Shown: positions 2,300-32,848 of the stretch, one piece after another
How positions within the stretch are numbered: position 1 is the first letter of the stretch
How the letters are laid out: each line of letters begins with the position of its first letter
Assembly: GCA_963545485.1 (NCBI GenBank)
Contig: CAUUJG010000005.1
Coordinates: 5,890 to 69,889 of the forward strand
Source of the DNA: an uncultured Clostridia bacterium
Lineage (GTDB): Bacteria; Bacillota; Clostridia; Christensenellales; CAG-917
Direction of reading: 5' to 3'
Length of the DNA: 64,000 bases
Notes under the pieces: generated by a model
Databases searched by the model: none
What the model saw: the letters and a program-made list of their open reading frames with translations, nothing else
Told to the model about the DNA's origin: nothing
Made by a program: the position numbers and the translations under genes

Positions 2300-2323
2300 T
2301 TTTTATTTCCTCCAAATTTTTAT

Positions 2324-3622: not shown

Positions 3623-3879
3623 TTGGAATTCTCCTTAAAAATTATTTATTAATTATAACATGCTCAAAACGGCATTCTCAATTTTTTTAAGCACTGTTTA
3701 TGTTTATTTTATTAACAACATGTTTTTTATTTCTTATATAAATATTCTATATTGTTAGTGTTTTAGACATTCTAATCCGATATATATTGTTTAAAGTAAC
3801 TCGTTATAACTTCTCACTAATATTTTTTAACATCGTATAAATTGACTACCACTTATTCTTGGTTTAAATTAATTAACGG

Positions 3880-5385: not shown

Positions 5386-6901
5386 ATTTCTTGATACAAC
5401 TCTTCGTGATGGTGCTCAATCAGAAGGAATTTCATATTCCAAGCTAGATAAAAAAATAATATCAGATCTGCTTATTAATTTCGGCATAGACTACATTGAG
5501 TGCGGTGATCCCTCTTCCAATCCTAAAGACAAAGAATTCTTTAAAACTTATTCTTTCAACAAGTATGTAGCTTTTTCTGGTACTCACAGAAAAACAATAT
5601 CCGTATCAGAGGATCCTTCAATACAAACTCTAATAGAAGCAAATACGAAATACTGCACAATATTTGGGAAATCAGGAATATTGCTTGCAAAAAAAATTCT
5701 AAATATTTCAGAAAGTGAAAATTTAAAACTAATTAACGATACGATTTCATATTTGGTTTCAAAAGGAAAAACTGTTTTCTATGATGCAGAACATTTTTTT
5801 GATTCATACAAAAGCAACCGTAAATATGCTTTAAAAACTATTGAAACAGCTTATTCAGCAGGTGCTGATGCTATAGTCCTCTGTGATACGAATGGTGGTA
5901 CTCTTCCAGAAGACATTAAAACTGCTGTAAAAGATGTGAAAACTTTATTCCCAAAAATGAAAATTGGAATTCATACACACAATGATATCGGCTGTGCAGA
6001 TATATCTTCAATTGCTGCAATTGAAGCTGGAGCAACACATATTCAGGGAACTTTTTTAGGATTTGGTGAAAGATGCGGAAATGCAAATTTGTCTAATATT
6101 ATTCCAACTCTCGTTTTTAAACTTGGATTTAATTTGGATGTAAAAATGGAAACCCTAACTTCAACAGCTAGAGAAATCGCAAATATATCAAATATAAATC
6201 TAAATCCACATATGCCATATGTGGGCAATTCTGCATTTACGCATAAAGCCGGAACTCATACAGATGGAATTTTAAAAATGCCTCACTCTTTTGAGCATAT
6301 AACTCCATCTGCAGTGGGCAACAGCAGTCATATACTATTGAGTGAAATTTCAGGAAAAGCTGCAATGGCAAGAAAACTTTCAAGCATCCTTCCTAATATT
6401 GAAAAAACTGATGCTCGTGTTGAAAAAATTCTTAAAGTCATAAAAGAAATGGAACTAAATGGATATCAGTTTGAAGGTGCAGATGCCAGTCTTCTTTTAT
6501 TAGCTAAAAAAGAATTAAAGATATTCAAACCTTCATTTAAACTAATTAATTACTCTATAACCTCTAATGAAAATAAAAATATAGCAACTGTTACAATAGA
6601 AGTTAATAACAAGCAATATACAAACACAAGTGAAGGGAATGGACCAGTTCACGCCCTTGATAAAGCTCTAAGAAGTACTCTCTTTGGAGTTTATCCCCAA
6701 ATAAATGACTTCAAGCTTGAAGACTACAAAGTTCGTGTAATTGATTCCAATATGGCTACCGGTGCTCTAGTACGAGTTGTTATAACATCGAAAGATTCAA
6801 CAAATATATGGAAAACCGTCGGAGTGTCGACCGATGTAATTAAAGCTTCTTGGTTTGCTTTGTCTGATAGTTTTGAATTTAAGCTACAAAAAATTAAGTA
6901 A
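5375..6901 (+). CDS. citramalate synthase / LeuA-family paralogue
   Basis: LRDGAQSEG and HTHNDIGCA motifs with a C-terminal regulatory domain. The ATG at 5375 is preceded by GAGG and overlaps the leuA stop by 11 nt. The ORF track starts at a TTG at 5363. Confidence 0.8.
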   Translation: MKIEFLDTTLRDGAQSEGISYSKLDKKIISDLLINFGIDYIECGDPSSNPKDKEFFKTYSFNKYVAFSGTHRKTISVSEDPSIQTLIEANTKYCTIFGKSGILLAKKILNISESENLKLINDTISYLVSKGKTVFYDAEHFFDSYKSNRKYALKTIETAYSAGADAIVLCDTNGGTLPEDIKTAVKDVKTLFPKMKIGIHTHNDIGCADISSIAAIEAGATHIQGTFLGFGERCGNANLSNIIPTLVFKLGFNLDVKMETLTSTAREIANISNINLNPHMPYVGNSAFTHKAGTHTDGILKMPHSFEHITPSAVGNSSHILLSEISGKAAMARKLSSILPNIEKTDARVEKILKVIKEMELNGYQFEGADASLLLLAKKELKIFKPSFKLINYSITSNENKNIATVTIEVNNKQYTNTSEGNGPVHALDKALRSTLFGVYPQINDFKLEDYKVRVIDSNMATGALVRVVITSKDSTNIWKTVGVSTDVIKASWFALSDSFEFKLQKIK

Positions 6902-12050: not shown

Positions 12051-12139
12051 GGAGATGTATCGAAGTGGTTATAACGGGGCTGACTCGAAATCAGTTAGGG
12101 AGCAATCCCTCGGGGGTTCGAATCCCTCCATCTCCGCCA
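12051..12139 (+). tRNA. tRNA-Ser (anticodon CGA), CCA encoded
   Basis: Acceptor GGAGATG pairs with CATCTCC. The anticodon loop is CTCGAAA, there is a long variable arm (TAGGGAGCAATCCCTCG), the T-loop is GGTTCGAATCC, and discriminator G precedes CCA. Confidence 0.9.
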
Positions 12140-12279
12140 CGCACCCAAAATTGCTACCTGATCATATCGAATTTACCCCAAATATTGCCCCTACACGCCC
12201 TAGTTTTAACGATTTAGTTTCTTTCGATGACATTATCAACGGCGAGTGGAGAGACCTGAGATTGCGAGGAAATGGTTAT
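12140..12279 (+). repeat. island repeat copy R1 (B segment only), abutting the tRNA-Ser 3' end
   Basis: The core ...cccaaaattgctacctgatcatatcgaattt...cattatcaacggcgagtggagagacct...ggaaatggttat recurs at 15499, 17700 and 24697, and in diverged form near 22130. Confidence 0.9.
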
Positions 12280-12326
12280 GTGAGAGAGTAAAAATAATTA
12301 CTAATTGTCTTGACTTGGGGAGCATA

Positions 12327-12995
12327 TTAATTTTCTACTTCCGCAATCATTTTCGTTAATTTGTGATATCTACAATATGAAGTTTCTTCGTTGCTTGTTT
12401 CTCCACCTAAATCAATTATCGCCTGACCTATTATTGCCCTCTTTGATGGCTTGCTGTTATTTAGAATTTCCAGCTTGGTATCTCTTTCTAATATAGACAA
12501 TGTCCCCCGATTGTTTGTCGTACCATAATATGTCTTCCCTGTTAAGGATGACGTGAATTCAATATCTTTGAAATGATGTCTCTTTATTGACATCTCGGAT
12601 TCTTCTTCTGCTACATCATTTTCTAATTCTTGTTCTTCAGTAATATCAATTTTCTTTAAATTGTCTACTAGCCCATTTATTTCGGCAATTGCCTCAAGAA
12701 TTTTATATGCTTCTTCAGCAGTCATAGCGTAGAATTCCCTCTTCCTTTCTTTGTTATTATATATTTCTCTTGCTCTTAAATTAGGATTAAGTTGATCAAT
12801 TAAGTCGTGAATCTTTATGTCTGTTAATCTTTTTTCAACTTCATAATAGGCATATAATCTGAAGGCAAATGGTATACATGAACTGCTATTTAAAGTATTT
12901 ACTCTTTCTTTTACGTCATCCGCATAACCAATCTTGACATACTGCGGAAAAGAAGGATTTGTTAAAATATAAATAACTCCTGCTTTATTTTTCAA
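12327..12995 (-). CDS. GIY-YIG / T5orf172 (MUG113)-type domain protein
   Basis: 222 aa. The N-terminus GVIYILTNPSFPQYVKIGYADDVKERVNTLN... fits the GIY-YIG-like T5orf172 fold. The C-terminal half is unassigned. Confidence 0.6.
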   Translation of the reverse strand: MKNKAGVIYILTNPSFPQYVKIGYADDVKERVNTLNSSSCIPFAFRLYAYYEVEKRLTDIKIHDLIDQLNPNLRAREIYNNKERKREFYAMTAEEAYKILEAIAEINGLVDNLKKIDITEEQELENDVAEEESEMSIKRHHFKDIEFTSSLTGKTYYGTTNNRGTLSILERDTKLEILNNSKPSKRAIIGQAIIDLGGETSNEETSYCRYHKLTKMIAEVEN

Positions 12996-14237: not shown

Positions 14238-14334
14238 TTTCCAGCTTAATGACATCGGTCTTTAACCGAGGCTGTCGATTTTTTAATGACCCCATCAAAA
14301 ATCTATCAAAATTAACACATCAATTCATGAAAAA

Positions 14335-14435
14335 TAAAAAAGCACCTATTTCTAGATGCCATAGTATTAAAGTCTTCACCATATTCTCCCAACAACTCAA
14401 CTCATCAATAATCGACAATCTAACCCACTCAATTA
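14335..14435 (+). repeat. island repeat fragment (A segment only)
   Basis: aaaaaagcacctatttctagatgccatagtatta..cttcaccatattctcccaacaactcaactcatcaataa... matches the A segments at 15349, 17540 and 24530. Confidence 0.85.
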
Positions 14436-14535
14436 ATAAAAACCCCCATCAAAAAACATTATCAAGGATGATACGCTACTAGACTTTTATTAATGACTTT
14501 TTCGCTACATGAGATTTTTTGTTAAAAGTTTTCTA

Positions 14536-15273: not shown

Positions 15274-15632
15274 TACCATAGTGAATTTTAAGTTATGAAA
15301 GACACATGAAATAGCCATTCAAAAATTAATCAAGAGACTCATAGAAAATAAAAAAATACCTATTTCTAGATGCCATAGTATTAGAGGCTTCACCATATTC
15401 TCCCAACAACTCAACTCCTCAATAACCGACCATCTACCCCACTTAATCACCCAAATTCAATGCCTCATTCCACAAGTATTATTAAACTTAATCTATGCGC
15501 CCAAAATTGCTACCTGATCATATCGAATTTGCCCAAAATATTGCCCCTACGCGCCCTAGTTTTGATGGTTTCGATTCTTTCGATGACATTATCAACGGCG
15601 AGTGGAGAGACCTTAGAATGCGAGGAAATGGT

Positions 15633-15669
15633 TATAAATAAAATATGGACATCGGTGAGGACATCCATA
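15633..15669 (-). terminator. intrinsic terminator at the end of repeat B
   Basis: The minus strand reads TATGGATGTC-CTCACC-GATGTCCATA (10-bp stem including 2 G-U pairs) followed by TTTTATTTAT. It lies 34 nt after the stop of 15703-16890. Confidence 0.6.
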
Positions 15670-15702
15670 GTTATAATTTTGATATTGATTTAATTTTTTG
15701 TT

Positions 15703-17466: not shown

Positions 17467-17832
17467 TAGTTGAGTGAATTCGAGGTTATGAAAACATATG
17501 CAGTGGTCATTCAAATTAATATGATAATTCTTGGAAAAATAAAAAAGCCCCTATTTCTAGAAGCCATAATTTGAGAACATTCACCATATTCTCCCAACAA
17601 CTCAACTCATCAATAACCGCACATCTAACCCACTCAATTGACCAAATTCAACACCTCTGCTCCACAAGTATTATTAAGCTTAATCTACAAACCCACGCAC
17701 CCAAAATTGCTACCTGATCATATCGAATTTACCCAAAATATTGCCCCTATGTGCCCTTGTTTTGATGGTTTGATTTCTTTTGATGGGATTATCAACGGTG
17801 AGCGGAGAGACCTTGGAATTGAGGGAAATGGT

Positions 17833-17869
17833 TATAATAAAATATGGACATCGTGTTGGGACATCCATA
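17833..17869 (-). terminator. intrinsic terminator at the end of repeat B
   Basis: The minus strand reads TATGGATGTC-CCAACAC-GATGTCCATA followed by TTTTATTAT, downstream of res. Confidence 0.55.
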
Positions 17870-17961
17870 CTCTTAATATTTTTCTTTATTTGATTATAAA
17901 CTCTCCCCCTAACAAACTATTTCATAAATCCTAATTGTTTTGTCATATGGCACATCACCAT

Positions 17962-20175
17962 TTAGAAAATTTTTTCTATTGGCATCCATCTATTGTCTGA
18001 CATTTTCAATACGAACTCAGTGTTGTTGATATAAAGGTTATTGTCGACGTCACGAACAAAACCCCAACTTAGATGTTTTTCATTTGCATATTTCTTAAGT
18101 GCATTAAATTTATTACCAATCTGGGCATCTATATTCTTGTTTGTTCCAGCAATCTCGCCACCTTTTGTTTCAATAACCCACACCGTCCCATCTTTCTTTT
18201 TTACAATATAGTCTGGATAAAATAACCATTGTTTTTGAACAGCATCGATATATACAATTGAAAAATATTGTTGACCAGAATCGCCGTTTTTATACACCCA
18301 ATCAATATCATCTCTTCTTTCACAATACTGTTCAAATAATTGCTCACAAGTGCTTCTAATCAATCTCGTATTAAATTCAGATGTGTACCCATCATAGGCA
18401 TTACTCAATATGTCAATGACCTTTTTAGTAGTTGGATCGTATTTAAAAAAATCTTCAACTAGCATATGGAAGGTTGATGTTTTCACAAACAAATCCATTC
18501 TGCCCTGTTTAACCATTCCAGCTGTTACTTCTTTGAATTCTTCTTTTAGTTTTTTTTCATTGTTGATTATAAAGGCATAGAAGAAATCTGTATCGAGATT
18601 GAGCAGTTTCTTATATTTGTTTGTTTGTTTTTTGAACAAGCGTTCTAGAATTGCTTTTGTCTGTTTTGTTTCAAGACCAATGACTTTTTTAAGTTCATCA
18701 GTAGCATGTAACAAATAAATACCATGTTTATGCGTATTCACCTTTCTTTTAGTTTCAATTACTCGTGCTGTCTCATCACCTACTGTCTCTGTTTTTACAT
18801 AAGTACCAGTCAGTGTTTGACCAAGCAATGAATCGCCAAATACATATCCAGCATTTTCAAGTTTTAGTTGATTTTGTTTTTTATCGGCGGTTAGCTTGTA
18901 TTTCTCCACAAAGAAATCGTATATCTTATTCGAGACATCACGCTCCCCCATTATTGATAAATCACGATCACGAACTTGTTTTTCGAGCTCAAATGTTTTG
19001 CATTTATCCTTTAGAAATAGACGCCTCGTTTCGTACGCCTTATCCATTTGTTCAAGCAATCCGTTTTTCCAAATCTCGTCGAATGTATATACGAAGCAAT
19101 AGTCAAGAAGATTATCTTCATAATGTTTCGCTTCTGGCATCCTTCTAATTCTACCGATTGTTTGAATCTCAAATTGCTCACTCATTCCCTCACGAAGTTT
19201 CACTAGGATCTTTGCACGTGGACAATCCCAACCTGTGCTGATAGCTTGTTTCATGAGTAAAAAGACTGGTGTTGCATCATTGTCGGTCAAATTCTCAGGC
19301 AAATCCCGCTTGTCCTCGCTCATCCACTTACTAACAAATCCGTTCTCATATGTATAACCCATATCCCTAAGTTTTTGTTCTACTGCTTCTATTGTTTCTG
19401 GTTGTCCGTTTGGAAATTGAATTAATACAAGAGGTCTGATTTTCTTTTCTATTTCATTGTATCGTTTTTGAATAGCTTTTCTCTTTTCATCTGCAAGTTC
19501 TAATAACCTATCATAGTCATTATCTATTACTTCCCCACGCTCAATGCCTTCATTGACTGACAGTGCTTTTGTTATTAACCCTGCGTCAATCACCCTTCTT
19601 TCGTCAATTTCATAGTACTCAAACCTTTTATTCTCTCTAGCAGTGGCACTCATCCTTATTATGTGTTTGGCAGTGAAAGAGTCAATTATTGCATTTGCTT
19701 TCGCAGTATTATTGGAGTGTTCCTCATCAATTATAATGATAAAATATATATTGTTGCACCTTGCTTCATCAATTCTATCATACAATGTTTTCCGTTCACT
19801 CTCGGTTATTGCCCTATTACCAGTCTTCGTCACTAATTCCCAATTAATAAATGTCGTGCTTCCCGCTGTAAAACCGCTGGTTAAGGCATCATTTAATGTT
19901 TGTGCTTTCATGGTTGGGGCTATTTTTAGCATCTTTCGACGGCTTTGTTCCTCGAGGTCTCCTTTGCCAGGACATAACCATATAAAAGCAACATTTTTGT
20001 CAACTTTATTAAAAAACTCGTTTATGTAATTGATGAGAATTATTGTTTTACCTGAACCAGTAGGTGATTTAATCGTTACAGTCGGTTTATGATTCCCTGT
20101 CGTTAATTCAATTAACTTTATTACCGCATCTTCCTGAAAATCAAAAAGTTTGATATTCACATTTCCACTTACCAT
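17962..20175 (-). CDS. res: Type III restriction enzyme, Res subunit (SF2 helicase plus PD-(D/E)xK nuclease)
   Basis: 737 aa with Walker A SPTGSGKT, DEEH box IIIDEEH, a helicase C-terminal QTIGRIRR motif, and a C-terminal PDYIV...VIETKGG nuclease motif. The start overlaps the mod stop (ATGGTAA). Confidence 0.85.
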   Translation of the reverse strand: MVSGNVNIKLFDFQEDAVIKLIELTTGNHKPTVTIKSPTGSGKTIILINYINEFFNKVDKNVAFIWLCPGKGDLEEQSRRKMLKIAPTMKAQTLNDALTSGFTAGSTTFINWELVTKTGNRAITESERKTLYDRIDEARCNNIYFIIIIDEEHSNNTAKANAIIDSFTAKHIIRMSATARENKRFEYYEIDERRVIDAGLITKALSVNEGIERGEVIDNDYDRLLELADEKRKAIQKRYNEIEKKIRPLVLIQFPNGQPETIEAVEQKLRDMGYTYENGFVSKWMSEDKRDLPENLTDNDATPVFLLMKQAISTGWDCPRAKILVKLREGMSEQFEIQTIGRIRRMPEAKHYEDNLLDYCFVYTFDEIWKNGLLEQMDKAYETRRLFLKDKCKTFELEKQVRDRDLSIMGERDVSNKIYDFFVEKYKLTADKKQNQLKLENAGYVFGDSLLGQTLTGTYVKTETVGDETARVIETKRKVNTHKHGIYLLHATDELKKVIGLETKQTKAILERLFKKQTNKYKKLLNLDTDFFYAFIINNEKKLKEEFKEVTAGMVKQGRMDLFVKTSTFHMLVEDFFKYDPTTKKVIDILSNAYDGYTSEFNTRLIRSTCEQLFEQYCERRDDIDWVYKNGDSGQQYFSIVYIDAVQKQWLFYPDYIVKKKDGTVWVIETKGGEIAGTNKNIDAQIGNKFNALKKYANEKHLSWGFVRDVDNNLYINNTEFVLKMSDNRWMPIEKIF

Positions 20176-21889
20176 GATTCTCCAACCTCCTTCATTTCAA
20201 AATCAAAATAATAATCTGGAATTGTTTGTATTTTCACTTTATCAAAAAGCTCTATCTGCTTAGTCGATAACAAAACTTCTCTAGAAATGTATATACACTC
20301 TGGAAAATTGTTTTTATCCCATTTTGCTTCCAAATCGTCTGCAGCACTATCGTTTAATAAAACAACATATTTCTTGCCGTCAATCTTTATTCCATTTTCA
20401 AGTTGTATCATTTCACATACGTGTTCAAGTAAGGCATCTAATAAAAAGTCCTCATCTCGTGATACAAAATCTGTCTTGTAATATTTTAAATTATGTGGTA
20501 ACTCCTTCTGAATATTCTTAAGCCTTTGATAGGTGACTTCCTCGCAAATTTTATTCTCATTATTCGTGCAAAGTATATATCTGCGATTCCCGCCATCTTC
20601 TTTGTTTAATTCAATCACTGCATGACCTGTTGTACCTGAACCCGCAAAAAAATCTAAAATTATTGTGGGTTCGCTATTCTTTGTTTCTGCACTTTTAATC
20701 AAGCGTTTTAATAACTTTAATGGTTTTGGATAATCAAATTTACCTCGACCTAATATTTTGATGACTTCATTGTTCCCGTTTGTTGAATCAGTAATTATAT
20801 TTTTTAAATTCGTAGAGAACATGTCTCTAATTTTTGTAAATATCCTAAATGTGTCTCCGTCCTTTTGAAAATGAAGATTTTCTACATCTTCACAAACTTT
20901 TTTTTCAGACCATCTCCATGCATGAAATTTATGTATACCATCTGCATTGTTGTGAGGTTTTATCAAAACAAAATTTGGATCTATTTTTTTTACTACTTCT
21001 CCATCATCTATCTTGGCAGTAATTACTTCTTTCGTTCTATCATTATAATAAATGTTATAAACTAAATTTGGTCTAGTTTCTTCATTGAAGGCAGAGTTCG
21101 TGTTAAATAACTCATTTTTAATCACATACTCACTTATTTTGTCTTTATATATTCTATATTCATTGTTTTTATAAATTGAAGGCATTTCTGTCGACAATTC
21201 TCTTATGTCTCCCTTAAAAGTATGAATATTTTCACCTGTTGCCGCATATAACAAAATATTTTCATATGTCTTGACAGCTCCACCACGCCCAATTTGTCTA
21301 CCTTTAGAATTATTTATCCATACAAAATCTGAAATAAAATTTTGTTCACCAAATATAGAATCACATAAAAGTTTTAAATTATACAACTCGTTATCATCAA
21401 TACTGATAAAAATAACACCGTTTTCTTTTAGTAATTGTTTTGCTATGCATAATCGTTTTGCCATAAAAGATAGCCATTTTGAATGTCTATAGCCATCTTC
21501 TTCTCCAACCATTGCATCATCATAAATAAATTCCTTCCCCGTGTTGTATGGCGGATCAATATAAATTACATCAATTTTTCCCTTATGTGTTTTTTGTAAT
21601 AAATACAGAGAGTGTAAATTGTCTCCCTCTAGTAGAAAATTATACCCCCCCCCCGCACATTGCTTATTATTTTTTCTTTTACTTCGGTAAAAACAGGAAT
21701 ATTGCCCCGTATATTATCATCAACTGTTTCTGTATGTTCCTCCCAAACCAAACCATACTTTTTACTTTTCAAAGCACTCTCAATTTCCCCAATTGCTACA
21801 AGGGACTCATCATCTGTCTTATTTTGTTCTTTAAGTTGTTGAAGAAAATTTAGCATCTTTTCTCTCTTCAGTTTTGATATATTCCCCAT
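20169..21889 (-). CDS. mod: Type III R-M Mod N6-adenine methyltransferase, frameshifted at a G10 tract (phase-OFF as assembled)
   Basis: The ORFs 21629-21889 and 20169-21512 are two pieces of one gene. With G11 or G8 the frame reads ...RGGGGYNFLLEGDNLHSLYLLQKTHKGKIDVIYIDPPYNTGKEFIYDDAMVGEEDG..., running into the 447-aa ORF that carries motif I (LDFFAGSGTTGHA). Confidence 0.85.
21645..21654 (-). repeat. homopolymeric G10 (C10 on the plus strand) inside the mod coding sequence
   Basis: Counted directly as 10 consecutive C at 21645-21654. The reading frame breaks immediately downstream (TAG at codon 87). Confidence 0.95.
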
Positions 21890-22049: not shown

Positions 22050-22305
22050 AACGGTACATCTAATTCACCTAATACAAGACATCCCCCACTCCAAATCCCT
22101 TATCAAGAATATTCTACAAACCCACCGCCAACAAATCACTAACGGATAATATCAAAACTAGCCCAAACATTGCCCCTACATGCCCTAGATTTCGTGACTT
22201 TGATGTTTATGACTACATTATTCACCGTGAGATACTAACCCCTTAAATAATAGGAAATGATTATGTATGGGAATAAAATATGGGCATCGGTTAGGACATC
22301 CATTT
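22050..22305 (+). repeat. island repeat copy R4 (diverged A+B)
   Basis: Retains ...ctacaaacccac...cattgcccctacatgccctag...attat.caccgtgag...ggaaatgattatg...aaaatatgggcatcggttaggacatccat in the same order as the other copies. Confidence 0.7.
22272..22303 (-). terminator. intrinsic terminator at the end of repeat B
   Basis: The minus strand reads ATGGATGTC-CTAACC-GATGCCCAT followed by ATTTTATT. It lies 16 nt after the stop of 22319-22849. Confidence 0.5.
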
Positions 22306-22318
22306 CAACTATTTTATT

Positions 22319-24083: not shown

Positions 24084-24289
24084 TGAATTTTTGAATTATT
24101 GACACTTAAACAATCATTGAAAATACACCCTAAATCAAAAGGGATAATGTGCACTTGTTGAATTGGGTTGCTTTCTATTACAAATTGCCTAGTCACATAT
24201 TTATTATACAACCTAAAATTAAATTTTCTATCACTGAATATACTAAAGTAATGGCTAGTTCATAAGCTTCGTAGTCACAACATCAACAA

Positions 24290-24335
24290 AATAAAAAAGC
24301 ACCTATTTCTAGATGCAATTTTATGAGAGCCTCGA
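24290..24335 (+). repeat. island repeat fragment (start of A)
   Basis: aaaataaaaaagcacctatttctagatgcaattttatgagagcc matches the first ~45 nt of the A segments. Confidence 0.7.
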
Positions 24336-24529
24336 GCCCTGGTCTTATAAACCCAGTTTTTAACGACTGGCTGTTCTCTCGTTACGACCTCAATCGTACC
24401 ACGCTTTTTTACGGCGTCAAATCGTAAATAAAATATAAAGGAGCTTTATAAAAATGTCAAGATGTCGTTGAAAAACAAATCTCCTAAGAGGACATTAAAG
24501 AGTTATCAATATTAATATGACACATCATG

Positions 24530-24872
24530 GAAAATGAAAAACGCCTACTTATAGATGCCATAGTATTAGAGCCTTCACCATATTCTCCCAACAACTCAAC
24601 TACACAATAACCGCATATCTAACCCACTCAAATATCCTAATTAAACACCCCCACCCCATATGTATTATTGAACATGCTCTACAAACGCACAACGACAAAA
24701 TTGCTACCTGATCATATCGAATTTACCCCAAATATCACCCCTGTGTGCCCTTGCTTTGATGATTAGGATTCTTACGATGGCATTATCAACAAAAAGTGGA
24801 CTAACCCTAGAATGGCAAAAATAATTGTGTGGAGAATAAAAAATACGGACATCAATTGGGAGATCCATATGC
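24530..24872 (+). repeat. island repeat copy R5 (A+B)
   Basis: ...cttatagatgccatagtattagagccttcaccatattctcccaacaactcaac...caaaattgctacctgatcatatcgaatttacccc...cattatcaac...acggacatcaattgggagatccata. Confidence 0.88.
24838..24869 (-). terminator. intrinsic terminator at the end of repeat B
   Basis: The minus strand reads TATGGATCTCCCAATTGATGTCCGTA (imperfect stem) followed by TTTTTT. It lies 21 nt after the stop of 24890-26104. Confidence 0.5.
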
Positions 24873-24889
24873 TTGAAACTCTACACCTA

Positions 24890-26104
24890 TCATTTGTTTT
24901 TATTGATTTGCTTAATTAAGTAGTTCAAAAGCACTTCACTGTAGTCCATTGGTATATCCTTTGTATGCTTATATAACGCATTACAAAAATCTAGGTAATA
25001 CGGATCATTGACATTTTTTGAAACTAAATAATTATAAATATCTCTGTATCTTATTTCTTTATATAACTTACTACCCTCATATAATGACAAATCTAGTTTG
25101 TTATGATTCGGTAAAAATAGAAAATACGATGCTCTTTTATGTTTCTCTCTAGCATAGTTCTCAGCGAAACTATAATACTTTGATAATTGAGATTGTATCA
25201 AACAACCATCACTAAAATCATGTCGATATGAAACTCCATTAATTCCCGATTTTATTTTGTTTTCAATAATAAGAATATTCGTATCGTCTTCAATCCATAA
25301 ATCAATATTATGAAACTCTCTTTTTATACTATATGTAGGATTTATATTGATATTTAAAATTTCTCTTGCGAAGTCTACAAATAAATAGCTGTATTTACTA
25401 AAAAAATAATTGAACATATTTGAGAAAGACAATTCATCATCCTCTTTGCCGATTAAGGTTAAAAAATTAAAATGATTATTATGTTTCTCGTTATCTATTC
25501 TAGTTATTATTTCACACCAAATCTCCTCGTCATTAATCATCCTCATAATTTCATTAAAGGAATCAGGTGTACTAATGTCGTCAACATACATATGCAGTGA
25601 CTGCTTTGCGAAACGTTTGTCCGCCATTTTATAAGAAACAATACAGTCACTAACTGTTTTATTGTAATGCGAATCTAATATAAAGATTTGTCTCTTCGGA
25701 TACAACAGTTTCTCTGATTTAAAAGTTATAGGCACCCATTCTTCTGTATCTTTTATGTAAGGAACTCCGCCATAATTAATAGGATGTTTTTTAGTATATT
25801 CTTTTAGCTCATGTGAACAAATTCCAAGTTTTTCTTTTAACCTGCATCCTTTTGCATGCACCAACTGACTTTCATCATTTAAGATACTAACCCCTATTAC
25901 TTCAAAACACCCAGTTTCATATAATCTCGTGTGAATAACTGCACGAACCGTATTATCATACCTTGAATTAAACAAGCCTTGAGGATTAATAAAGCAATAA
26001 TTTATTCCCTCATCTGAATGAAGTAAATTTATAACCTCGCCACCACCAATACCACGAGTCAAATACTCTCCAGCATACATTCTATTAATAATAATTGAAT
26101 TCAT
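24890..26104 (-). CDS. PD-(D/E)xK nuclease-family protein with an unassigned N-terminal domain
   Basis: The C-terminal half has NIDLWIEDDTNILIIENKIKSG...QLSKYY (D...E-x-K core). The ATG at 26104 overlaps the upstream TAA (TAATG) and is preceded by GAGAGGA. Confidence 0.65.
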   Translation of the reverse strand: MNSIIINRMYAGEYLTRGIGGGEVINLLHSDEGINYCFINPQGLFNSRYDNTVRAVIHTRLYETGCFEVIGVSILNDESQLVHAKGCRLKEKLGICSHELKEYTKKHPINYGGVPYIKDTEEWVPITFKSEKLLYPKRQIFILDSHYNKTVSDCIVSYKMADKRFAKQSLHMYVDDISTPDSFNEIMRMINDEEIWCEIITRIDNEKHNNHFNFLTLIGKEDDELSFSNMFNYFFSKYSYLFVDFAREILNININPTYSIKREFHNIDLWIEDDTNILIIENKIKSGINGVSYRHDFSDGCLIQSQLSKYYSFAENYAREKHKRASYFLFLPNHNKLDLSLYEGSKLYKEIRYRDIYNYLVSKNVNDPYYLDFCNALYKHTKDIPMDYSEVLLNYLIKQINKNK

Positions 26105-26622
26105 TATATTTCCTCTCTCGAGACATAACACATTGATGCTTTCTCATCTGGTAGCACTAAATAAAACTCCACATCAAACTCGTCAATAAGTTCTCTTAGT
26201 TTTTCATACACTTTAGATCCAACACATTCATGCTTATAGCCGTGATGACCCGTTCCCAAACTAACACTAATAATATTTTTATAACCCCTTTGGGCAGCAC
26301 TATTGAATATTAAATAATAACTATCAAGCAATTCCACATAAGGATTTGTTGATTCAAAGAACTTCGGACAATAGATATGTAAAATATCCACATTTAAACC
26401 AAAATCTGGCGTGAATCGTATCTCATTCACTTCCATATTTTTAGTAAATTTTTTTTGACAATAATCTTCTAATTCTCGCATGCCTGCTCGTTTATATGTT
26501 TGTCCACAAATGCCACTGCCATATAACATATATTTATTATTGCTATTAACGATTAAATCTTTGCCACCCAAATAGTCGAATAAAGTGCCAGTTACTATGT
26601 GCAGTTTGTTAGTTCTTTCCAT
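26104..26622 (-). CDS. macrodomain (ADP-ribose binding/hydrolase) protein
   Basis: 172 aa with IVNSNN...GSGICGQ and ISVSLGTGHHGY blocks. These correspond to the macrodomain NAAN...GGGV and ISFP.IStG.yG motifs. Confidence 0.7.
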   Translation of the reverse strand: MERTNKLHIVTGTLFDYLGGKDLIVNSNNKYMLYGSGICGQTYKRAGMRELEDYCQKKFTKNMEVNEIRFTPDFGLNVDILHIYCPKFFESTNPYVELLDSYYLIFNSAAQRGYKNIISVSLGTGHHGYKHECVGSKVYEKLRELIDEFDVEFYLVLPDEKASMCYVSREEI

Positions 26623-26701
26623 AAATTACCTTTGAGCATATATTACGTCACTAATGTCAAACATCTTTGCAATGCACACCTTTACTTTATTCCTTATATT
26701 T

Positions 26702-28108
26702 TTACAGCAACCTCTTGTATATATCTAACATACTTTCCATTTGATATTTTAATAGCCAAGCGACATCATTATATTCACTTGTTTTCTTTATTGTTTCTAA
26801 TAACTTTGGATAATATCTCTCAGTTTCTTTTATCATTTGAAACATCCTCTCCTTACTAAGTCCCCACGACATTGTTGTTAAGTTATTGCAACGATCAATA
26901 CACTTTGTTATTGATGCCTTTACATTGCAGCAAATTGTATTGTAGTACATTTCCATATCGCTTTCAGTTGTATTCTCTTTTGATTTCCTTCTTGTCATAA
27001 GTCTTACTATTTCTTTCGATTCGTCTCCAACTGGTAACTCACGCTCTTCCTTCCCGCAATCTTCAATTACATCGTGTAAAAGTATTGCGGAAATTAACGC
27101 ATCATCTCTAATCCCCATTGCCAGTGCGTGACAAGCCATATTTAAGGGATGATATATGTAAGGAACTTCTGAGTTTTTTCTTGTTTGTCCATAATGTGAT
27201 TCTACTGCATACTCAATACTCTTTAATGTATCATTCAAGTTGCATTTCTTTGCTACTCGCTCAACATATTCCCTCATGTGTTCCCAATCATATATTGCTT
27301 CCTTTGTTTTAAAATCTTTCCCTTTTATACCAATCCTTCGAATTTCTTCAACACCCACAATTTGCAATTTTCTTATCCCCTGTCTGAATTTTTCAAATTT
27401 GTTTGCACGTCTAAAAGGTAATGTTGGAAAGATTGTCGCACACATTGCTGTTAGAATACCTATAGGTATACACAATCTCACCATAAAATTTATTAATTCT
27501 ACCTTCATATTACTATTTAAATTTTGCAAGTAACCGCCACTTAATACCAAAAACAATGGGAAAATAAAAGTTGAAAATATTTGTAAAACTACTATTGCAC
27601 CCTTCCATTCATAAGTTTTTTTATTTCTCAAAATTTCTATTTCACTAGCAATTGCATCTAGTGCTTTTTCATCTGCTGTGTCTACTTTTTTAGCTATAAG
27701 TAGTTCATTTAAGACTCTTGCTTCTTCTAAATCTGATTCCCCTATAAGTGGGTCGACTTCAACTGCTTTTTTTAAGGTTATATTAGCATTAATACAAAAC
27801 CATAAACCCACAATGAAAAATAAGATAACACAAACTATAAAAACATAAAATTCCTTTATGGTCCCAACTTTGAGAGCAAACACTCTTATTCCTTCTACAC
27901 CTATAATGATAAGCAAAATCGAACACAAAACTGAATAAATAATACCCTGTATTTTTCTTTCCTTTCTACTCTTTTCAAATCCACTTTCTTCTAATTTTTC
28001 ATTAAATGCAGGTTTCTTTCCTTTAGACTGTTTTTTCTCTTCTTTTTTCCTTTTTTCCTCATTGTTTAGTTTTTTAACATACTGTTTTGCTAATTCTTCC
28101 ACCAACAT
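26702..28108 (-). CDS. multi-pass membrane protein with a C-terminal SpoT/RelA-type HD hydrolase domain
   Basis: 468 aa with a Lys/Glu-rich N-terminus and about 6 predicted TM helices. The C-terminal part has YIYHPLNMACHALAMG...LLHDVIEDCG (the H...HD...ED pattern of (p)ppGpp-hydrolase-type HD domains). Confidence 0.65.
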   Translation of the reverse strand: MLVEELAKQYVKKLNNEEKRKKEEKKQSKGKKPAFNEKLEESGFEKSRKERKIQGIIYSVLCSILLIIIGVEGIRVFALKVGTIKEFYVFIVCVILFFIVGLWFCINANITLKKAVEVDPLIGESDLEEARVLNELLIAKKVDTADEKALDAIASEIEILRNKKTYEWKGAIVVLQIFSTFIFPLFLVLSGGYLQNLNSNMKVELINFMVRLCIPIGILTAMCATIFPTLPFRRANKFEKFRQGIRKLQIVGVEEIRRIGIKGKDFKTKEAIYDWEHMREYVERVAKKCNLNDTLKSIEYAVESHYGQTRKNSEVPYIYHPLNMACHALAMGIRDDALISAILLHDVIEDCGKEERELPVGDESKEIVRLMTRRKSKENTTESDMEMYYNTICCNVKASITKCIDRCNNLTTMSWGLSKERMFQMIKETERYYPKLLETIKKTSEYNDVAWLLKYQMESMLDIYKRLL

Positions 28109-28295: not shown

Positions 28296-28664
28296 TCATA
28301 GTTCTAATTTAATTCCTTTTCCCCTCAGATTTTCTATACACTCAATTAGATACTCTTTATTATGTTCTTTGTAAATTGGACTTTCTAAAACTTTTTCTTC
28401 AAGAATATTGTAATTTTCTGTTCTCTTCCCTCTATAATTCTTATCTCTCCACTCTTTAGAAACTTTATACCCTCTTTTTTCCATTTCATCCATAACTACT
28501 GAATGATAAATAAATAAGTAATATGGAGAATATGAAAATACATAATCTACTATTTTATGTTTCTTTTGCCATCCATTTCCCCTAAGTGCACAGCATTCTC
28601 TATGTTGTCCAAGAAGCTGGTTTTTAGGCAATAGATGAATGATTTGTTCATGCCATAGTCTCAT
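28296..28664 (-). CDS. pyrimidine-dimer DNA glycosylase (T4 DenV / TIGR02328-like)
   Basis: 122 aa. MRLWHEQIIHLLPKNQLLGQHRECCALRGNGW matches the conserved N-terminus of the DenV-like family. Confidence 0.7.
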   Translation of the reverse strand: MRLWHEQIIHLLPKNQLLGQHRECCALRGNGWQKKHKIVDYVFSYSPYYLFIYHSVVMDEMEKRGYKVSKEWRDKNYRGKRTENYNILEEKVLESPIYKEHNKEYLIECIENLRGKGIKLEL

Positions 28665-28665
28665 T

Positions 28666-29051
28666 TTATTCTCCTCTTAATAAAGTGGATTCTTGTAAAT
28701 ATTTATTTGGATATTTCTTTAGCAAATTATTGATATATTCAATTAACGATTCCTGATTATTATTTTGTCTCATATATTCTTCCAGTATGCTAAATAACCC
28801 TTGTTTTTCCACTTCAGTTGCTTGATTCTTAAAATATCCCCATATGTGAAAAATGGCATTCTTAAAATCTTTTTTACTTTCTTTTATATTCCTTGCCTTT
28901 TGTATTCTTTCATTAAGGATCAAAATATCAACTTCTTTTTCTTTCAGATACTCTCTATTTCTAAGTACACTTTATGTGATTTGCTTAATACATAATATTT
29001 ATTTTTTACCCATAGCTCTTCACATTCTCTTTTTATATTCTTGTGGTTCAC
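28666..29051 (-). pseudogene. DUF1722 (YbgA-like) gene, apparently frameshifted
   Basis: An N-terminal piece (GTG 29051 to TGA 28944, ...ELWVKNKYYVLSKSHKVYLEIESI*) and a C-terminal piece (ORF 28666-28923, ...HIWGYFKNQATEVEKQ...YL) lie in adjacent frames. The RBS AGAGGG precedes 29051. Confidence 0.5.
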
Positions 29052-29252: not shown

Positions 29253-29801
29253 CTAATCTCCATTTATAAATATACAATCATCTACTACAACTTCATTCAA
29301 AGCAACTTTACTATAAAAATATTTCTCTTCATCTTTATATCTGTCTGTAACAAATATTAAGTTTTTATTTTTAGAACCTATTAGCAACCTATTTTCATCA
29401 ATTTGATTCTCAATAAACGGTCCATCTATCAAAAGATCTACGCTATTAACTAGTGCATTATCTAAACAATCTATATTTTTACCTGAAAACATAATTATTC
29501 CCAGCCCCAGCTCTTTAATTGCTTTATTAAATTCAATTAACCCCTGCTGTAGAGATGGTTCACCACCACTTAAAGTAACTCCTTCTATATCAAAATTTCT
29601 CTTTGCCTCTTTAACAATATCTATCAGCTTGCCTAATGTGACGATATGTTTAGGTAATAACTCCTGTAAATCTTTATTGCAACAACCTTTGCAATTAATA
29701 TTGCAACCCTGAAACCAAATACAGCATCTATTAAAAGGACCTTCAGTTTTTGTAAATAACTTTATATGTGCAATGTTAAACTTTATTTTATTTAAATCCA
29801 A
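29253..29801 (-). CDS. NrdG-like radical-SAM activase (4Fe-4S single-cluster domain)
   Basis: 182 aa with the CX3CX2C cluster GCNINCKGC, and with GVTLSGGEP and VDLLIDGPF...LLIGSKNKN blocks as in anaerobic RNR activases. It overlaps the upstream AAA+ gene by 14 nt. Confidence 0.75.
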   Translation of the reverse strand: MDLNKIKFNIAHIKLFTKTEGPFNRCCIWFQGCNINCKGCCNKDLQELLPKHIVTLGKLIDIVKEAKRNFDIEGVTLSGGEPSLQQGLIEFNKAIKELGLGIIMFSGKNIDCLDNALVNSVDLLIDGPFIENQIDENRLLIGSKNKNLIFVTDRYKDEEKYFYSKVALNEVVVDDCIFINGD

Positions 29802-31713
29802 AATTCAATCCTGACTTCCCAACTGAAGCAATTAATTTACTATTTGGGAGCAAATTCAAAATCTCTTTATTTTCAAATAAGAATATCCCCAACGGCTCAA
29901 TTAATTTCTGATCTATTGCGTTTAAGATATCACGCCCGCCTTTCATTAAATCTACTTCAGAAATTATGTAATTAATCGCAGTTATTTCATCTTCAAATTC
30001 GAACCTCAGTTTGTATTTTTCTTTTATTTCATCTATTAATGGCATCATCTTTGATCTACAAATCTTATATTGAAATCCCTTATCCTGAATAAAGTTAAAT
30101 GGCACAATATTACTATATCCAATTCTTCCCAACAATTCTGGTCTCTGCAATTTAGTATCAAAGTATTCTTTAACAACATCAATAAATTGTTGAGCAACGA
30201 CCTTCTTATCTTCATTCGGTCTAACGACACTGCTACCCAAATTTGATGTAAACACTATAACGGTATTGCCAAAATAGACTGTCTGTCCCTTTGAATCTGT
30301 TAATCTACCATCTTCTAGTATTTGCAAAAATATATCCAGTATCCTTGGATTTGGTTTTGCTGCTTTCTCAATTTCGTCAAACAATATAACGCTAAACGGA
30401 TGTTCTTTAACTGCATTGGTGAGTTGCCCTCCTTCCTCATATCCTACATATCCCGGAGGTGCACCAATCAACTTTTGATCACTATTCTGTCCCGCATATT
30501 CAGACATATCGAATCTAATACACGCCTGTTCGTCTCCAAATAAAAATTTTGCTAAAGCCTTACATAATTCTGTTTTACCTACACCTGTTGGTCCAACAAA
30601 AAATAAAACTCCTTTGGGGGTAGACTTTGACGATTTCTTATGAATTCCTGTTAGCCCCATGTACGCCTTTATTACCGCTCTTTCAACTTTTTTAATTGCG
30701 TCTTCTTGTCCTACGACCTGTTTTTCTAATTCTTTTTGGATATTCTTTACTCTCTTATATTCTAACTTCTCCCATGGATTATCTTTCTCGCCATATTTAA
30801 AGAGATAAAATAGTTTTTCAAAACTTGTTTTTTCTTCTTTTCTAGACATTCTCGCCAATTGAATTATTTCTCTGTTAGTAAAGTCTTCTAGTAAATCAAT
30901 ACAATTCAGATTCTCATCATCTAAAAGTGTTTTTGTTTCTTCTTTCAATTCTATTTCAAATCCTGTGCTGATTTTCTTTATCATCCTTTTGCGTTCTTCT
31001 CTATCTGGTTTTTGAAGTGTAATGATTTCAACCTCTGGATTGTCACGGTATAACGATATTGGTATAGAAGATGCACTATTGAGCAATATGACTACAACAC
31101 TCTCATTGCAATCTGGTGATATATATTGAACTTTTCTATCCTTTATTGACTTGCTCAATAAAGTTATATTTTCTCTTTCTTCATCATTTAGATGATCACT
31201 ATCAAACAAGTATTCAGACCAATTAATTATAAAAGCACTCTTTTGTTTAGTATCAACTAAATTCTTATAAATTATGTTGAATATATCTGTCGGCGATTTG
31301 AATTGTGCATCGGCTGGTCGTCTATTTTGCCTTACTATTTGAGTACGTCCTACAACATTCCCATGTCTATCATATGCATCCTCAAAGTAGTCATCGTCGT
31401 CGATTAAATCGTAATCAAACGTATCGTCGTCCAAACCACTTATGTCATATGCGTCTCCCTCTAGATTGATCTTCGTGTCTACCAATTTTAAGCTATCCCC
31501 TATGCCAACTGCTCCTTCAATTCGATCCCAATATATGATTTCTCTATATTCCATCTCTTTGAACATGTTTTCTAAGTACTCGCGTAACGTGACAATCTTA
31601 GCTCTGCTTCCACTATCTGATAAATATACATCTCCAATATTGCCATCAATTATGAGACACTTTTTAATACCAGCATTTCTCTTAATTTTATTAAAACTGT
31701 TCTCTAATGACAT
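29788..31713 (-). CDS. ClpB-D2-like AAA+ ATPase with a divergent N-terminal half
   Basis: 641 aa with Walker A GPTGVGKT, GAPPGYVGYEEGGQLT, Walker B ILFDEIEKA, sensor FTSNLG and LEDGRLTD. The N-terminal ~330 aa lacks a P-loop and contains an acidic stretch (DDDTFDYDLIDDDDYFEDAYD). Confidence 0.8.
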   Translation of the reverse strand: MSLENSFNKIKRNAGIKKCLIIDGNIGDVYLSDSGSRAKIVTLREYLENMFKEMEYREIIYWDRIEGAVGIGDSLKLVDTKINLEGDAYDISGLDDDTFDYDLIDDDDYFEDAYDRHGNVVGRTQIVRQNRRPADAQFKSPTDIFNIIYKNLVDTKQKSAFIINWSEYLFDSDHLNDEERENITLLSKSIKDRKVQYISPDCNESVVVILLNSASSIPISLYRDNPEVEIITLQKPDREERKRMIKKISTGFEIELKEETKTLLDDENLNCIDLLEDFTNREIIQLARMSRKEEKTSFEKLFYLFKYGEKDNPWEKLEYKRVKNIQKELEKQVVGQEDAIKKVERAVIKAYMGLTGIHKKSSKSTPKGVLFFVGPTGVGKTELCKALAKFLFGDEQACIRFDMSEYAGQNSDQKLIGAPPGYVGYEEGGQLTNAVKEHPFSVILFDEIEKAAKPNPRILDIFLQILEDGRLTDSKGQTVYFGNTVIVFTSNLGSSVVRPNEDKKVVAQQFIDVVKEYFDTKLQRPELLGRIGYSNIVPFNFIQDKGFQYKICRSKMMPLIDEIKEKYKLRFEFEDEITAINYIISEVDLMKGGRDILNAIDQKLIEPLGIFLFENKEILNLLPNSKLIASVGKSGLNFGFK

Positions 31714-31726
31714 TCTTCACTCCTTC

Positions 31727-32848
31727 TTAGTCTTGAGTTTGTCTTCCCTTATTGGAATCCTCAAAAAAGCGTCTTTGTTTTAATTTCTTTAGTGGCTCAT
31801 CGTGATATACGGTTTCGCTTACTATATGTATGCCATATATTTCTTCTAATATTTTCAAGAATGGTTCTATATCATTTGTGCAAGTTCCGCCCTCATACCC
31901 ATCAAAATGATACATAAATTTGCCGTCTAGTTTTACTTCAAATTCAGCCATTTGCCCTGAAGGTTTTTGTGCAACCATCTTAACTACGTCTTTTTTTCTA
32001 TCAATTTTAATATTGTTTTTTGTATCTACTACAAATCCAGTTTCTCTTATCGCCTTAATAATTGCCTTTAGCGTCGCATTTCTTGTGCGTTCTTTAACAA
32101 TTTCTCGATATGTTGCACTAAATACTTCTCTTGTTCCAAAGTAATCTTGTATTGCAAATTCAGATACATTGTTCTCTCTTAACTTATTTCTACAATACTC
32201 CTTTATTTCCTCTCTTATATATCCATTGAGACTATTTGCTCTCCGTTCTGCTTTGCTTTTAATTTTCTTAAATGTTAGATCTGCATTAATCGGTCTCATC
32301 AACTCTCTATATACCAACTCCCGAATAGTTACACTCTTTATATTTTTTGCTTCTTCTAGTTTTTTAACAAATGCCTTTGTGTTTAACTCTGGTTTTTCTC
32401 TGAGCATCTCCTCAATATGAAGAAGCCCATCTCCATATATTTTTTTATCAAGCATTATCTTCATCAGTTCAATTTCAACTCCAAGGACACCAATGACGTC
32501 TCTTGATAAGTCATTCGATATGTCTCGAAGTTGGTTATATATTTCTGCCAATTCTTTTTCCTCTTTTGTTCTGTTATACCTTACATCCGCATTAAATCTT
32601 TTAGTCTTCAAGTCTCTATTTAATTCAAAAGCAGCTCGTGCTTTTTTGGTTCTCTTAATAATTTTTTCTCTATATTGCAAAAGATACTTTTTATATTCTA
32701 TGACCTTGTCTTCCCCAATTTTTTCGCCAACACGATCTAAATGACGAAGCATTTCTGTTATACGCTCTAACGCCTCTAAGGCAACTTGACACTCCACCTC
32801 ATTCTCAACCGCCAATGCTTCAAAATTAACCATTACTCTTCTACTCAC
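31727..32848 (-). CDS. hypothetical coiled-coil protein (first gene of the three-gene operon)
   Basis: 373 aa, Lys/Glu/Arg-rich and predicted helical through about 270 aa, then a compact C-terminal domain (...[28 protein letters not shown]...). AAGGAG lies 13 nt upstream of the downstream ATPase start. Confidence 0.55.

Follow-up and report, generated by a model that had tools for sequence, protein, structure and literature searches.

The window analysed here is a stretch of 64,000 nucleotides (nt) from an uncultured Clostridia bacterium of the Christensenellales (contig CAUUJG010000005.1). On its minus strand, a gene encoding a macrodomain protein overlaps the start of a gene encoding a two-domain nuclease of the PD-(D/E)xK type, and both are preceded by a gene encoding an HD-type hydrolase. 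The three genes and their parts are listed below. Loci identified in other genomes are denoted by L numbers.

26104-26622, minus strand: macrodomain gene, 172 amino acids (aa), of a subfamily with the loops GSG[IV]CG and GTG.HGYKH
24890-26104, minus strand: nuclease gene, 404 aa plus stop codon, two domains, as defined by the open reading frame (ORF), its homologues and an AlphaFold2 (AF2) model
25490-26104, minus strand: N-terminal domain of the nuclease (N-domain), residues 1-205, beta-rich and family-specific
24893-25435, minus strand: PD-(D/E)xK (PDDEXK_4) catalytic domain of the nuclease, residues ~224-404
26102-26106, minus strand: TAATG stop/start overlap, with a Shine-Dalgarno-like GAGAGG at 26112-26117
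26702-28108, minus strand: HD gene, 468 aa, with an N-terminal membrane-like region and a C-terminal RelA/SpoT-type HD (HD_4) hydrolase domain; third gene of the cassette

Two overlapping genes

Both ORFs of the pair are present at the coordinates given in a preliminary description of the sequence, on the minus strand, which had not been stated there. Translational coupling through TAATG, proposed in the same description, is borne out by the sequence: the macrodomain stop codon TAA (26106-26104) and the nuclease ATG (26104-26102) have one base in common. The GAGAGG motif (26117-26112) lies inside the end of the macrodomain gene, 7 nt 5' of the nuclease ATG. An identical stop/start overlap is found in L001, L002, L091 and L092. 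Neither ORF occurs by chance, because each has hundreds of homologues (393 for the nuclease, best E-value 1e-185; 180 for the macrodomain protein, best E-value 1e-75; near-identical copies excluded). The nuclease homologues are mostly full-length proteins of ~400-430 aa. The two are real, translationally coupled genes. NCBIfam and PHROGs provide no specific name for either protein, and a metagenome scan with a single protein retrieved one near-identical contig and nothing else.

The nuclease and its catalytic domain

The 404-aa protein scores 22.1 bits against the Pfam family PDDEXK_4 (PF14281), the cut-off being 22.3. A family alignment was built from 57 full-length relatives, 28-68% identical, and PDDEXK_4 is matched by 39 of them (best E = 1e-10). 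The 25 invariant columns of the alignment include E224, D268, E281, N282, K283, Q306 and Y310, and the core motifs are laid out as E224, D268, E281-x-K283 and Q306xxxY310. In the full-length AF2 model (predicted local distance difference test, pLDDT, 86.3) the catalytic residues are carried by a helix (224-237), three strands (259-264, 267-272, 276-282), a second helix (306-320) and a further strand (324-331), and this is the order of elements in the PD-(D/E)xK core. Foldseek comparison of the same model to the PDB gave weak matches, to the PD-(D/E)xK enzymes R2 endonuclease, BspD6I, McrC, Bax1 and Hjc. The protein contains IDLWIED, IIENKIKS and QLSKYY, and the PD-(D/E)xK assignment made earlier from this region is upheld by both the family alignment and the model. 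The protein consists of a catalytic-looking PD-(D/E)xK domain joined to a family-specific one. PDDEXK_4 was entered as 'Unknown' in a 2012 survey of the superfamily.

The N-terminal domain

Modelled alone by AF2, residues 1-205 reach a pLDDT of 90.6 and a predicted TM-score (pTM) of 0.89. Residues G12, G21, E23, N26, D31, Y36, G43, Y111 and W196 are invariant in the 57-member alignment. The preliminary description left this region unassigned. Foldseek searches of the full-length and N-domain models against the PDB and BFVD found nothing significant, with no N-domain match below E = 0.3, and the family profile gave no significant match for the domain among PDB sequences. No recurring N-domain family was detected by Pfam at E<=5 across the 57 members, nor any similarity to known SRA or EVE families. 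The top PDB matches, all weak (E 0.3-3.6, TM-score at most 0.40), are 2p5d, YTHDF2 and three ZmASCH entries; 2p5d is MJECL36, which we take to be an EVE-type protein. EVE, YTH and ASCH domains are all PUA-like folds, and these model-based matches may serve as a lead, not as an assignment. Thus, of the fold check suggested earlier, a PUA-like lead was obtained and no significant match.

A profile of the N-domain alone identified 901 clusters at 50% identity (E<=1e-3). When ten longer relatives were scanned, a PD-(D/E)xK model followed the N-domain in nine (PDDEXK_4 in eight, PDDEXK_9 in one); the tenth gave no significant match, and no other known domain was found in any of the ten. Since nine of the ten extended proteins keep the N-domain and then the nuclease, the two domains form a fixed unit. 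Some family members are fused at the N-terminus to DUF7662, and others, of 530-757 aa, carry extensions that match no family (P0037, P0040 and L008:284-1810 are among these longer forms). Fusions of macrodomain and nuclease were also considered and rejected: the longer homologues (490-757 aa) bear DUF7662 or unassigned extensions, never a macrodomain.

The PUA-like lead bears on one explanation of the gene pair. The N-domain would read an ADP-ribosylated or otherwise modified base, in the style of type IV restriction enzymes, and the macrodomain would strip the ADP-ribose from nucleic acid, so as to protect the cell's own DNA or RNA or to finish a repair. Removal of ADP-ribose from DNA is an activity of macrodomains such as DarG. 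The weak matches do come from three PUA-like families (2p5d, YTHDF2, ZmASCH), many of the invariant residues of the domain are aromatic, and no methyltransferase partner was seen among the flanking genes. However, the fold matches fall short of significance (E>=0.3, TM-score<=0.40), the majority of family members have no macrodomain, and the cassette lacks an ADP-ribosyltransferase. This explanation is held to be improbable.

The macrodomain protein

The 172-aa protein matches the Pfam Macro family (PF01661) with 39.4 bits (E = 6.4e-10, cut-off 22), and this confirms the domain call previously made from the motifs IVNSNN, GSGICGQ and SLGTGHHGY, all of which are present. Its closest PDB sequences are TTHA0132, E. 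coli YmdB, AF1521 and MacroD-type macrodomains. IVNSNN..GSGICG and GTGHHGY align with IVNAAN..GGGVDG and STGVYGY of YmdB, and with the ADP-ribose-binding loops of TTHA0132. The protein belongs to a tightly conserved subfamily of ~165 aa, in which 43 columns are invariant among 30 sequences and the loops read DLIVNS.N.YM.YGSG[IV]CG and SLGTG.HGYKH. Both ADP-ribose-binding patterns, N-x6-GxG in loop 1 and GxG-aromatic in loop 2, are present and invariant in the subfamily. Judged from the sequence, the protein is a macrodomain with intact ADP-ribose-binding loops. The Asp of YmdB is replaced by Cys in the subfamily, and the same GVCGA motif occurs in alphavirus macrodomain sequences (GGGVCGA/GAGVCGA; PMC12421852).

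When members of the subfamily were picked independently of the nuclease, one was found alone on a resolvase-bearing element, another upstream of a KAP NTPase gene near a serine recombinase, and others next to housekeeping genes; linkage to the nuclease was seen only in the 70%-identical one.

In L096-L099 (~2005-6151) a member of the subfamily lies between a gene for a PH_gly_zipper protein and one for an 842-aa KAP NTPase, and the element carries a large serine recombinase. Here, too, a macrodomain may be arranged with an effector.

Distribution and neighbours of the nuclease family

One genome per species was scanned, and the best 80 of the 160 relatives found were kept as species-level loci. 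Among these best 80 are loci from Clostridia, Bacilli, Erysipelotrichaceae, Acholeplasmataceae, Campylobacter, Treponema, Fibrobacter, Alphaproteobacteria, Gastranaerophilales, Saccharibacteria, Elusimicrobia and Methanobrevibacter. This large, uncharacterised nuclease family comprises at least 901 clusters at 50% identity; it is scattered horizontally and occurs patchily among bacteria and methanogens. In 2.9 million viral contigs it was found at three loci; the macrodomain subfamily is similarly rare in viral contigs (two loci). Neither protein has a match in the plasmid and phage record collections searched.

The 147 genes flanking non-redundant loci fall into 123 Pfam families, the commonest of which, AAA_14, occurs in four, and DNA methyltransferases are not among the commonest families. 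Genes found immediately upstream across the family encode, among others, Vsr, an EEP-family enzyme, a WYL regulator, a DUF6994 protein and a racemase. In Saccharibacteria loci the upstream genes lie on the opposite strand, and no coupled upstream gene is found. A macrodomain was detected within 8 kb of the nuclease in three of the 80 species-level loci (L001, L002 and L004; phmmer and a hidden Markov model of the subfamily, E<=1). The nuclease family has no obligate or conserved partner. No description of this macrodomain-nuclease pair was found in the literature.

The slot upstream of the nuclease

The nearest clade, formed by nuclease relatives 59-99% identical, gives a different picture from the family at large. 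Here a macrodomain gene stands directly upstream of the nuclease gene in four lineages, and the macrodomains come from two different families. In the lineage of the window (window, L001, L002, L081) the genes overlap. L091/L092 feature an identical overlap, with a macrodomain 70% identical and a nuclease N-terminus 91% identical to those of the window. In L104/L105 the nuclease is 68% identical, the macrodomain is of the same subfamily at 55%, and a 7-bp gap separates the genes. In L004 the nuclease is 64% identical, the macrodomain is of the other, MacroD/YmdB type (Pfam E = 6e-41), and the gap is 51 bp. The L104 macrodomain is no closer to that of the window than stand-alone macrodomains are (within the subfamily it ranks from 42nd to 115th of 123); because the two are not sisters, the association looks recruited more than once. 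Recurrence in four lineages and two macrodomain families favours a functional link. The linkage of the two genes across genomes, proposed earlier as a check on the pair, recurs in four lineages of the nearest clade. At the family level the outcome that was named beforehand as speaking against a system, independent occurrence, largely applies: a macrodomain is near the nuclease in three of 80 loci, neighbours are otherwise unrelated, and the macrodomain subfamily is mostly found apart from the nuclease.

At least eight other lineages (L005, L006, L083, L084/85, L106, L107, L109, L108) have the slot occupied by a protein of ~97 aa unrelated to the macrodomain, called X. The gap between X and nuclease genes is at most 14 bp, or the genes overlap; in L108, X is the C-terminal domain of a 470-aa protein. 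X proteins share the motif DYLYGFDE.EP..SPYRFGN. No Pfam family is matched, and a homologue search gave six close relatives, none annotated. X was ruled out as a truncated macrodomain, the two having no similarity. X sequences are located as follows.

L005:4018-4311
L006:7676-7984
L083:3699-3989
L084:3584-3880
L106:2692-2988
L107:2031-2315
L109:2693-3004
L108:1579-2991 (C-terminal part)
L008:1803-2264

L003/L082 and L007 have neither macrodomain nor X in the slot. A third protein, Y (109-122 aa), is found upstream of the macrodomain in L104 (L104:1028-1357), while in L012 (L012:7366-7734) it immediately precedes the nuclease; the similarity of the two Y sequences was judged by eye.

The order of a small upstream gene followed by an effector gene, the stop/start overlap and the interchange of non-homologous proteins in the slot all agree with a type II-like toxin-antitoxin system, in which the nuclease would be the toxin and the macrodomain (X in sister lineages) would neutralise it by binding. 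An ORF of 89 aa resembling ribbon-helix-helix proteins is moreover found further upstream in L104. Against this, a coupled upstream gene is lacking in many family members, as in the Saccharibacteria loci with their opposite-strand neighbours, and in other clades the upstream genes are unrelated housekeeping or regulatory genes. The ADP-ribose-binding loops of the macrodomain are in addition under strong purifying selection, which is not required of a mere binding partner. We regard such a system as very improbable. An obligate antitoxin/toxin arrangement, one of the two alternatives offered in the preliminary description, is accordingly unlikely, with a macrodomain in three of 80 loci and many nucleases standing alone.

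A mobile three-gene block

A RelA/SpoT-type HD_4 gene is found just upstream of the macrodomain, X or Y in the window, L001, L002, L091/92, L005, L006, L084/85 and L012. The HD protein of the window matches TIGR00691 (E = 2.7e-16), HD_4 (25.6 bits) and phrog_990 (5e-19), and contains the motifs PYIYHP and LLHDVIED. Its HD domain lies with the gene pair in a block shared with two other loci.

24688-27332, minus strand: block ~95% identical in nucleotide sequence to L001 and L002 (BLASTN), including the HD domain, the macrodomain and nuclease genes and the start of the junction repeat

In the core flanks outside the block (tRNA-Ser, superoxide dismutase and beyond), the L001 and L002 metagenome-assembled genomes share only 73-86% identity with the window. 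In L001 and L002 the block directly adjoins tRNA-Ser(cga); in the window it lies ~12.5 kb from this tRNA and is separated from it by five other cassettes. The breakpoint at the upstream end of the block is within the HD gene, and the HD domain is therefore joined to different N-termini: a membrane-like region of 258 aa in the window, HTH_3 in L001 (L001:808-1623) and none in L002 (L002:1335-1910). HD, macrodomain and nuclease genes make up a block that moves horizontally as a unit. The two-gene architecture previously described does correspond to an unnamed pair recurring in a subclade; it is not conserved at the family level, and the mobile unit comprises three genes.

Genes that travel together may do so as independent cargo. 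HD_4 and macrodomain proteins would then be stand-alone eraser or immunity enzymes, directed against alarmone-synthetase and ADP-ribosyltransferase toxins of phages, mobile elements or competitors, and the nuclease an unrelated restriction-like gene sharing cassette and transcript with them. The macrodomain and nuclease families are indeed mostly found apart, the macrodomain subfamily is found next to other effectors, the KAP NTPase among them, on elements that carry recombinases, and the island in which the block resides consists of cassettes unrelated to one another. Counter-defence by orphan antitoxin-like erasers has been documented (PMC11825919), and ADP-ribosyl hydrolases have been discussed as modules countering toxic attack (PMC11833690). 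What is harder to reconcile with this explanation is that the genes stay tightly coupled (overlapping or 7 bp apart) over 55-70% macrodomain divergence, and that a second, unrelated macrodomain family occupies this position in L004. The nuclease-linked macrodomains are not one clade, which suggests repeated recruitment, and the slot directly upstream in this nuclease clade nearly always holds a small coupled gene. Independent cargo is possible, if on the whole rather unlikely.

Comparison with known systems

The preliminary description did not recognise the pair as a named system, and this was confirmed by PADLOC, where the macrodomain protein has no match and the nuclease only a partial one, to the nuclease core of PDC-S26. 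Residues 228-360 align with positions 52-183 of the 413-position profile (E~9e-4), and no full-length match is found. The PDDEXK_4-type cores are homologous, 49 of the 57 aligned family members matching PDC-S26 models (best E = 3e-11), and both proteins behave as single genes in islands. In contrast, ~130 of 400-413 profile positions align and the N-domain of the window family is not covered; the core is N-terminal in PDC-S26 (~52-183) and C-terminal in the window family. PDC-S26, a PADLOC candidate for single-gene phage defence, appears in a pipolin survey as a list entry only.

The order of domains recalls other single-protein systems. In Shedu (SduA), too, an N-terminal domain is combined with a PD-(D/E)xK nuclease in one protein, and a comparable regulatory logic is plausible. 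However, the nuclease is DUF4263 in Shedu and PDDEXK_4 here, no DUF4263 or Shedu match was found in Pfam or PADLOC, and the sensing domain of Shedu is variable, whereas the N-domain is fixed across the window family. Type IV restriction enzymes such as the MspJI family have a PUA-like reader fused to a PD-(D/E)xK nuclease. The window family resembles them in having a non-catalytic N-terminal domain of ~200 aa followed by a C-terminal D...ExK nuclease, in being encoded by a lone gene with no methyltransferase among the commonest neighbour families, and in its patchy distribution. It differs in that the N-domain matches the EVE, YTH and ASCH folds only weakly and has no sequence similarity to SRA or EVE.

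As in DarTG, a macrodomain gene is tightly coupled to the gene for a potentially harmful enzyme directed at nucleic acids. Unlike DarTG, no neighbouring gene encodes DarT (DUF4433) or any other ADP-ribosyltransferase according to Pfam and PADLOC, and the analogy with DarG drawn earlier fails for want of a toxin. The macrodomain is MacroD/AF1521-like, not DarG/TARG1-like, and gives no DarTG match in PADLOC; with its 172 aa it is a macrodomain only, lacking the C-terminal DarT-binding (antitoxin) domain. It is not a DarG-type antitoxin. Thoeris is set apart by the lack of a TIR domain in the neighbourhood, by the macrodomain being here a separate protein, and by the absence of a PADLOC match. 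In sum, identity with DarTG, Thoeris, Shedu or full-length PDC-S26 was ruled out (no DarT, TIR or DUF4263; alignment limited to the core).

Small alarmone hydrolases (SAHs) are the antitoxins of toxSAS-SAH systems. Like SAH antitoxins and orphan erasers (PMC11825919), the cassette encodes reversers of nucleotide-derived toxic modifications, namely a RelA/SpoT-type HD hydrolase and a macrodomain. Differently from them, no toxin gene for a cognate synthetase or transferase lies next to these genes, and the N-terminal half of the HD protein is unusual and membrane-like.

Interpretation of the locus

The locus is best read as an island-borne PD-(D/E)xK nuclease with optional accessory genes. The nuclease would be a self-contained defence-type DNA endonuclease, modulated or protected by the macrodomain, a reading to which roughly an even chance is given. 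We infer a DNA substrate, a defence role and some biochemical link between the two proteins. The nuclease would be the core component of the mobile HD_4 hydrolase-macrodomain-nuclease cassette. Its beta-rich N-domain would supply target or trigger recognition, and PDDEXK_4 would act as a metal-dependent phosphodiesterase domain; as neither a methyltransferase nor any other conserved partner is required in the family, the action is plausibly self-contained and restriction-like, with recognition by the N-domain. The macrodomain would be a facultative accessory, co-transcribed and translationally coupled, with X taking its slot in sister lineages. By binding or hydrolysing an ADP-ribose adduct or ligand it may tune or protect the nuclease, either erasing an ADP-ribose-linked trigger or reversing an inactivating ADP-ribosylation.

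Several points weigh against a defence nuclease served by its macrodomain. The PDDEXK_4 score of the window protein itself is marginally under the Pfam cut-off. Macrodomains are missing from 77 of the 80 species-level loci, and the link may be one of shared cargo only; conversely, the macrodomain subfamily is mostly found without the nuclease, for instance before a KAP NTPase gene or, by itself, on elements with a recombinase. Target recognition by the N-domain is a conjecture, made for a modelled fold that has no significant match, and it is context and distribution that suggest the defence role.

A bolder proposal is that macrodomain (or X) and two-domain nuclease constitute a new two-component immune module, in which an ADP-ribose-linked signal or adduct gates a nuclease with an undescribed N-terminal sensor fold. 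The signal could be ADP-ribosylation inflicted by a phage on the nuclease or on nucleic acid, or else a small molecule derived from ADP-ribose, and the interchangeable upstream partners would be alternative trigger-erasers or sensors. We consider this doubtful.

With at least 901 clusters at 50% identity in bacteria and methanogens, and a confidently modelled N-domain matching no solved structure, the nuclease family, for which no function is described, is a reasonable target for the discovery of defence systems or restriction enzymes. If recruitment of macrodomains reflects real coupling, ADP-ribose erasure would be connected to an effector nuclease although no cognate ADP-ribosyltransferase is present, a logic outside that of DarTG and Thoeris as known. 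Should the genes be co-resident cargo and nothing more, the locus would be an ordinary defence-island cassette.

The island and its other genes

The cassette resides in a variable island made of same-strand gene cassettes separated by a non-coding repeat of 190-400 nt, present in at least five copies.

~12051-32850: variable island, between tRNA-Ser(cga) and a class II aminoacyl-tRNA synthetase gene
12134-12330, 15280-15700, 17470-17900, 22060-22310 and 24480-24880: repeat copies
14280-14460 and 24260-24360: partial repeat copies
24480-24880, minus strand: junction repeat 3' of the nuclease gene, non-coding, ending in a terminator-like hairpin

The first repeat copy abuts the 3' end of the tRNA. 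A full copy starts with ATGGA(T/C)(G/A)TCC..GATGTCCAT and ends in a terminator-like hairpin. A coding function of the 52-54-aa ORF found in the junction repeat was ruled out, as it shows no codon-position bias and has in-frame stops in two copies. The repeat was also rejected as a structured RNA: no Rfam family is matched at the gathering threshold, and fold z-scores are +0.75 and +0.93. No integrase gene was seen within the island (12051-32850). The GC content is uniform (~0.31-0.34), and related metagenome-assembled genomes host different sets of cassettes at the same tRNA.

Other genes in the island encode a type III-like Res/Mod pair, an isochorismatase-family protein, BspA-type leucine-rich repeat proteins, a DenV-like glycosylase and a ClpB-like ATPase. 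At 17962-21889 (minus strand) the gene for a type III-like restriction helicase (ResIII) overlaps that of an N6_N4 DNA methylase. The Pfam match of the latter begins at profile position 20 and a separate 86-aa ORF lies upstream, so that the methylase may be split or truncated. At 29253-32848 (minus strand) the gene of a small radical-SAM/4Fe-4S protein, with weak matches to pVip models, overlaps that of a 641-aa ClpB-like AAA_2 ATPase, which matches PDC-M37B of PADLOC (E = 5e-33) and DolB; a 373-aa protein belonging to no family is encoded upstream. These genes may form a separate candidate defence operon. Beside the HD-macrodomain-nuclease cassette, at 28296-28923 (minus strand), a DUF1722 gene forms a pair with the gene for a DenV-like pyrimidine-dimer DNA glycosylase.

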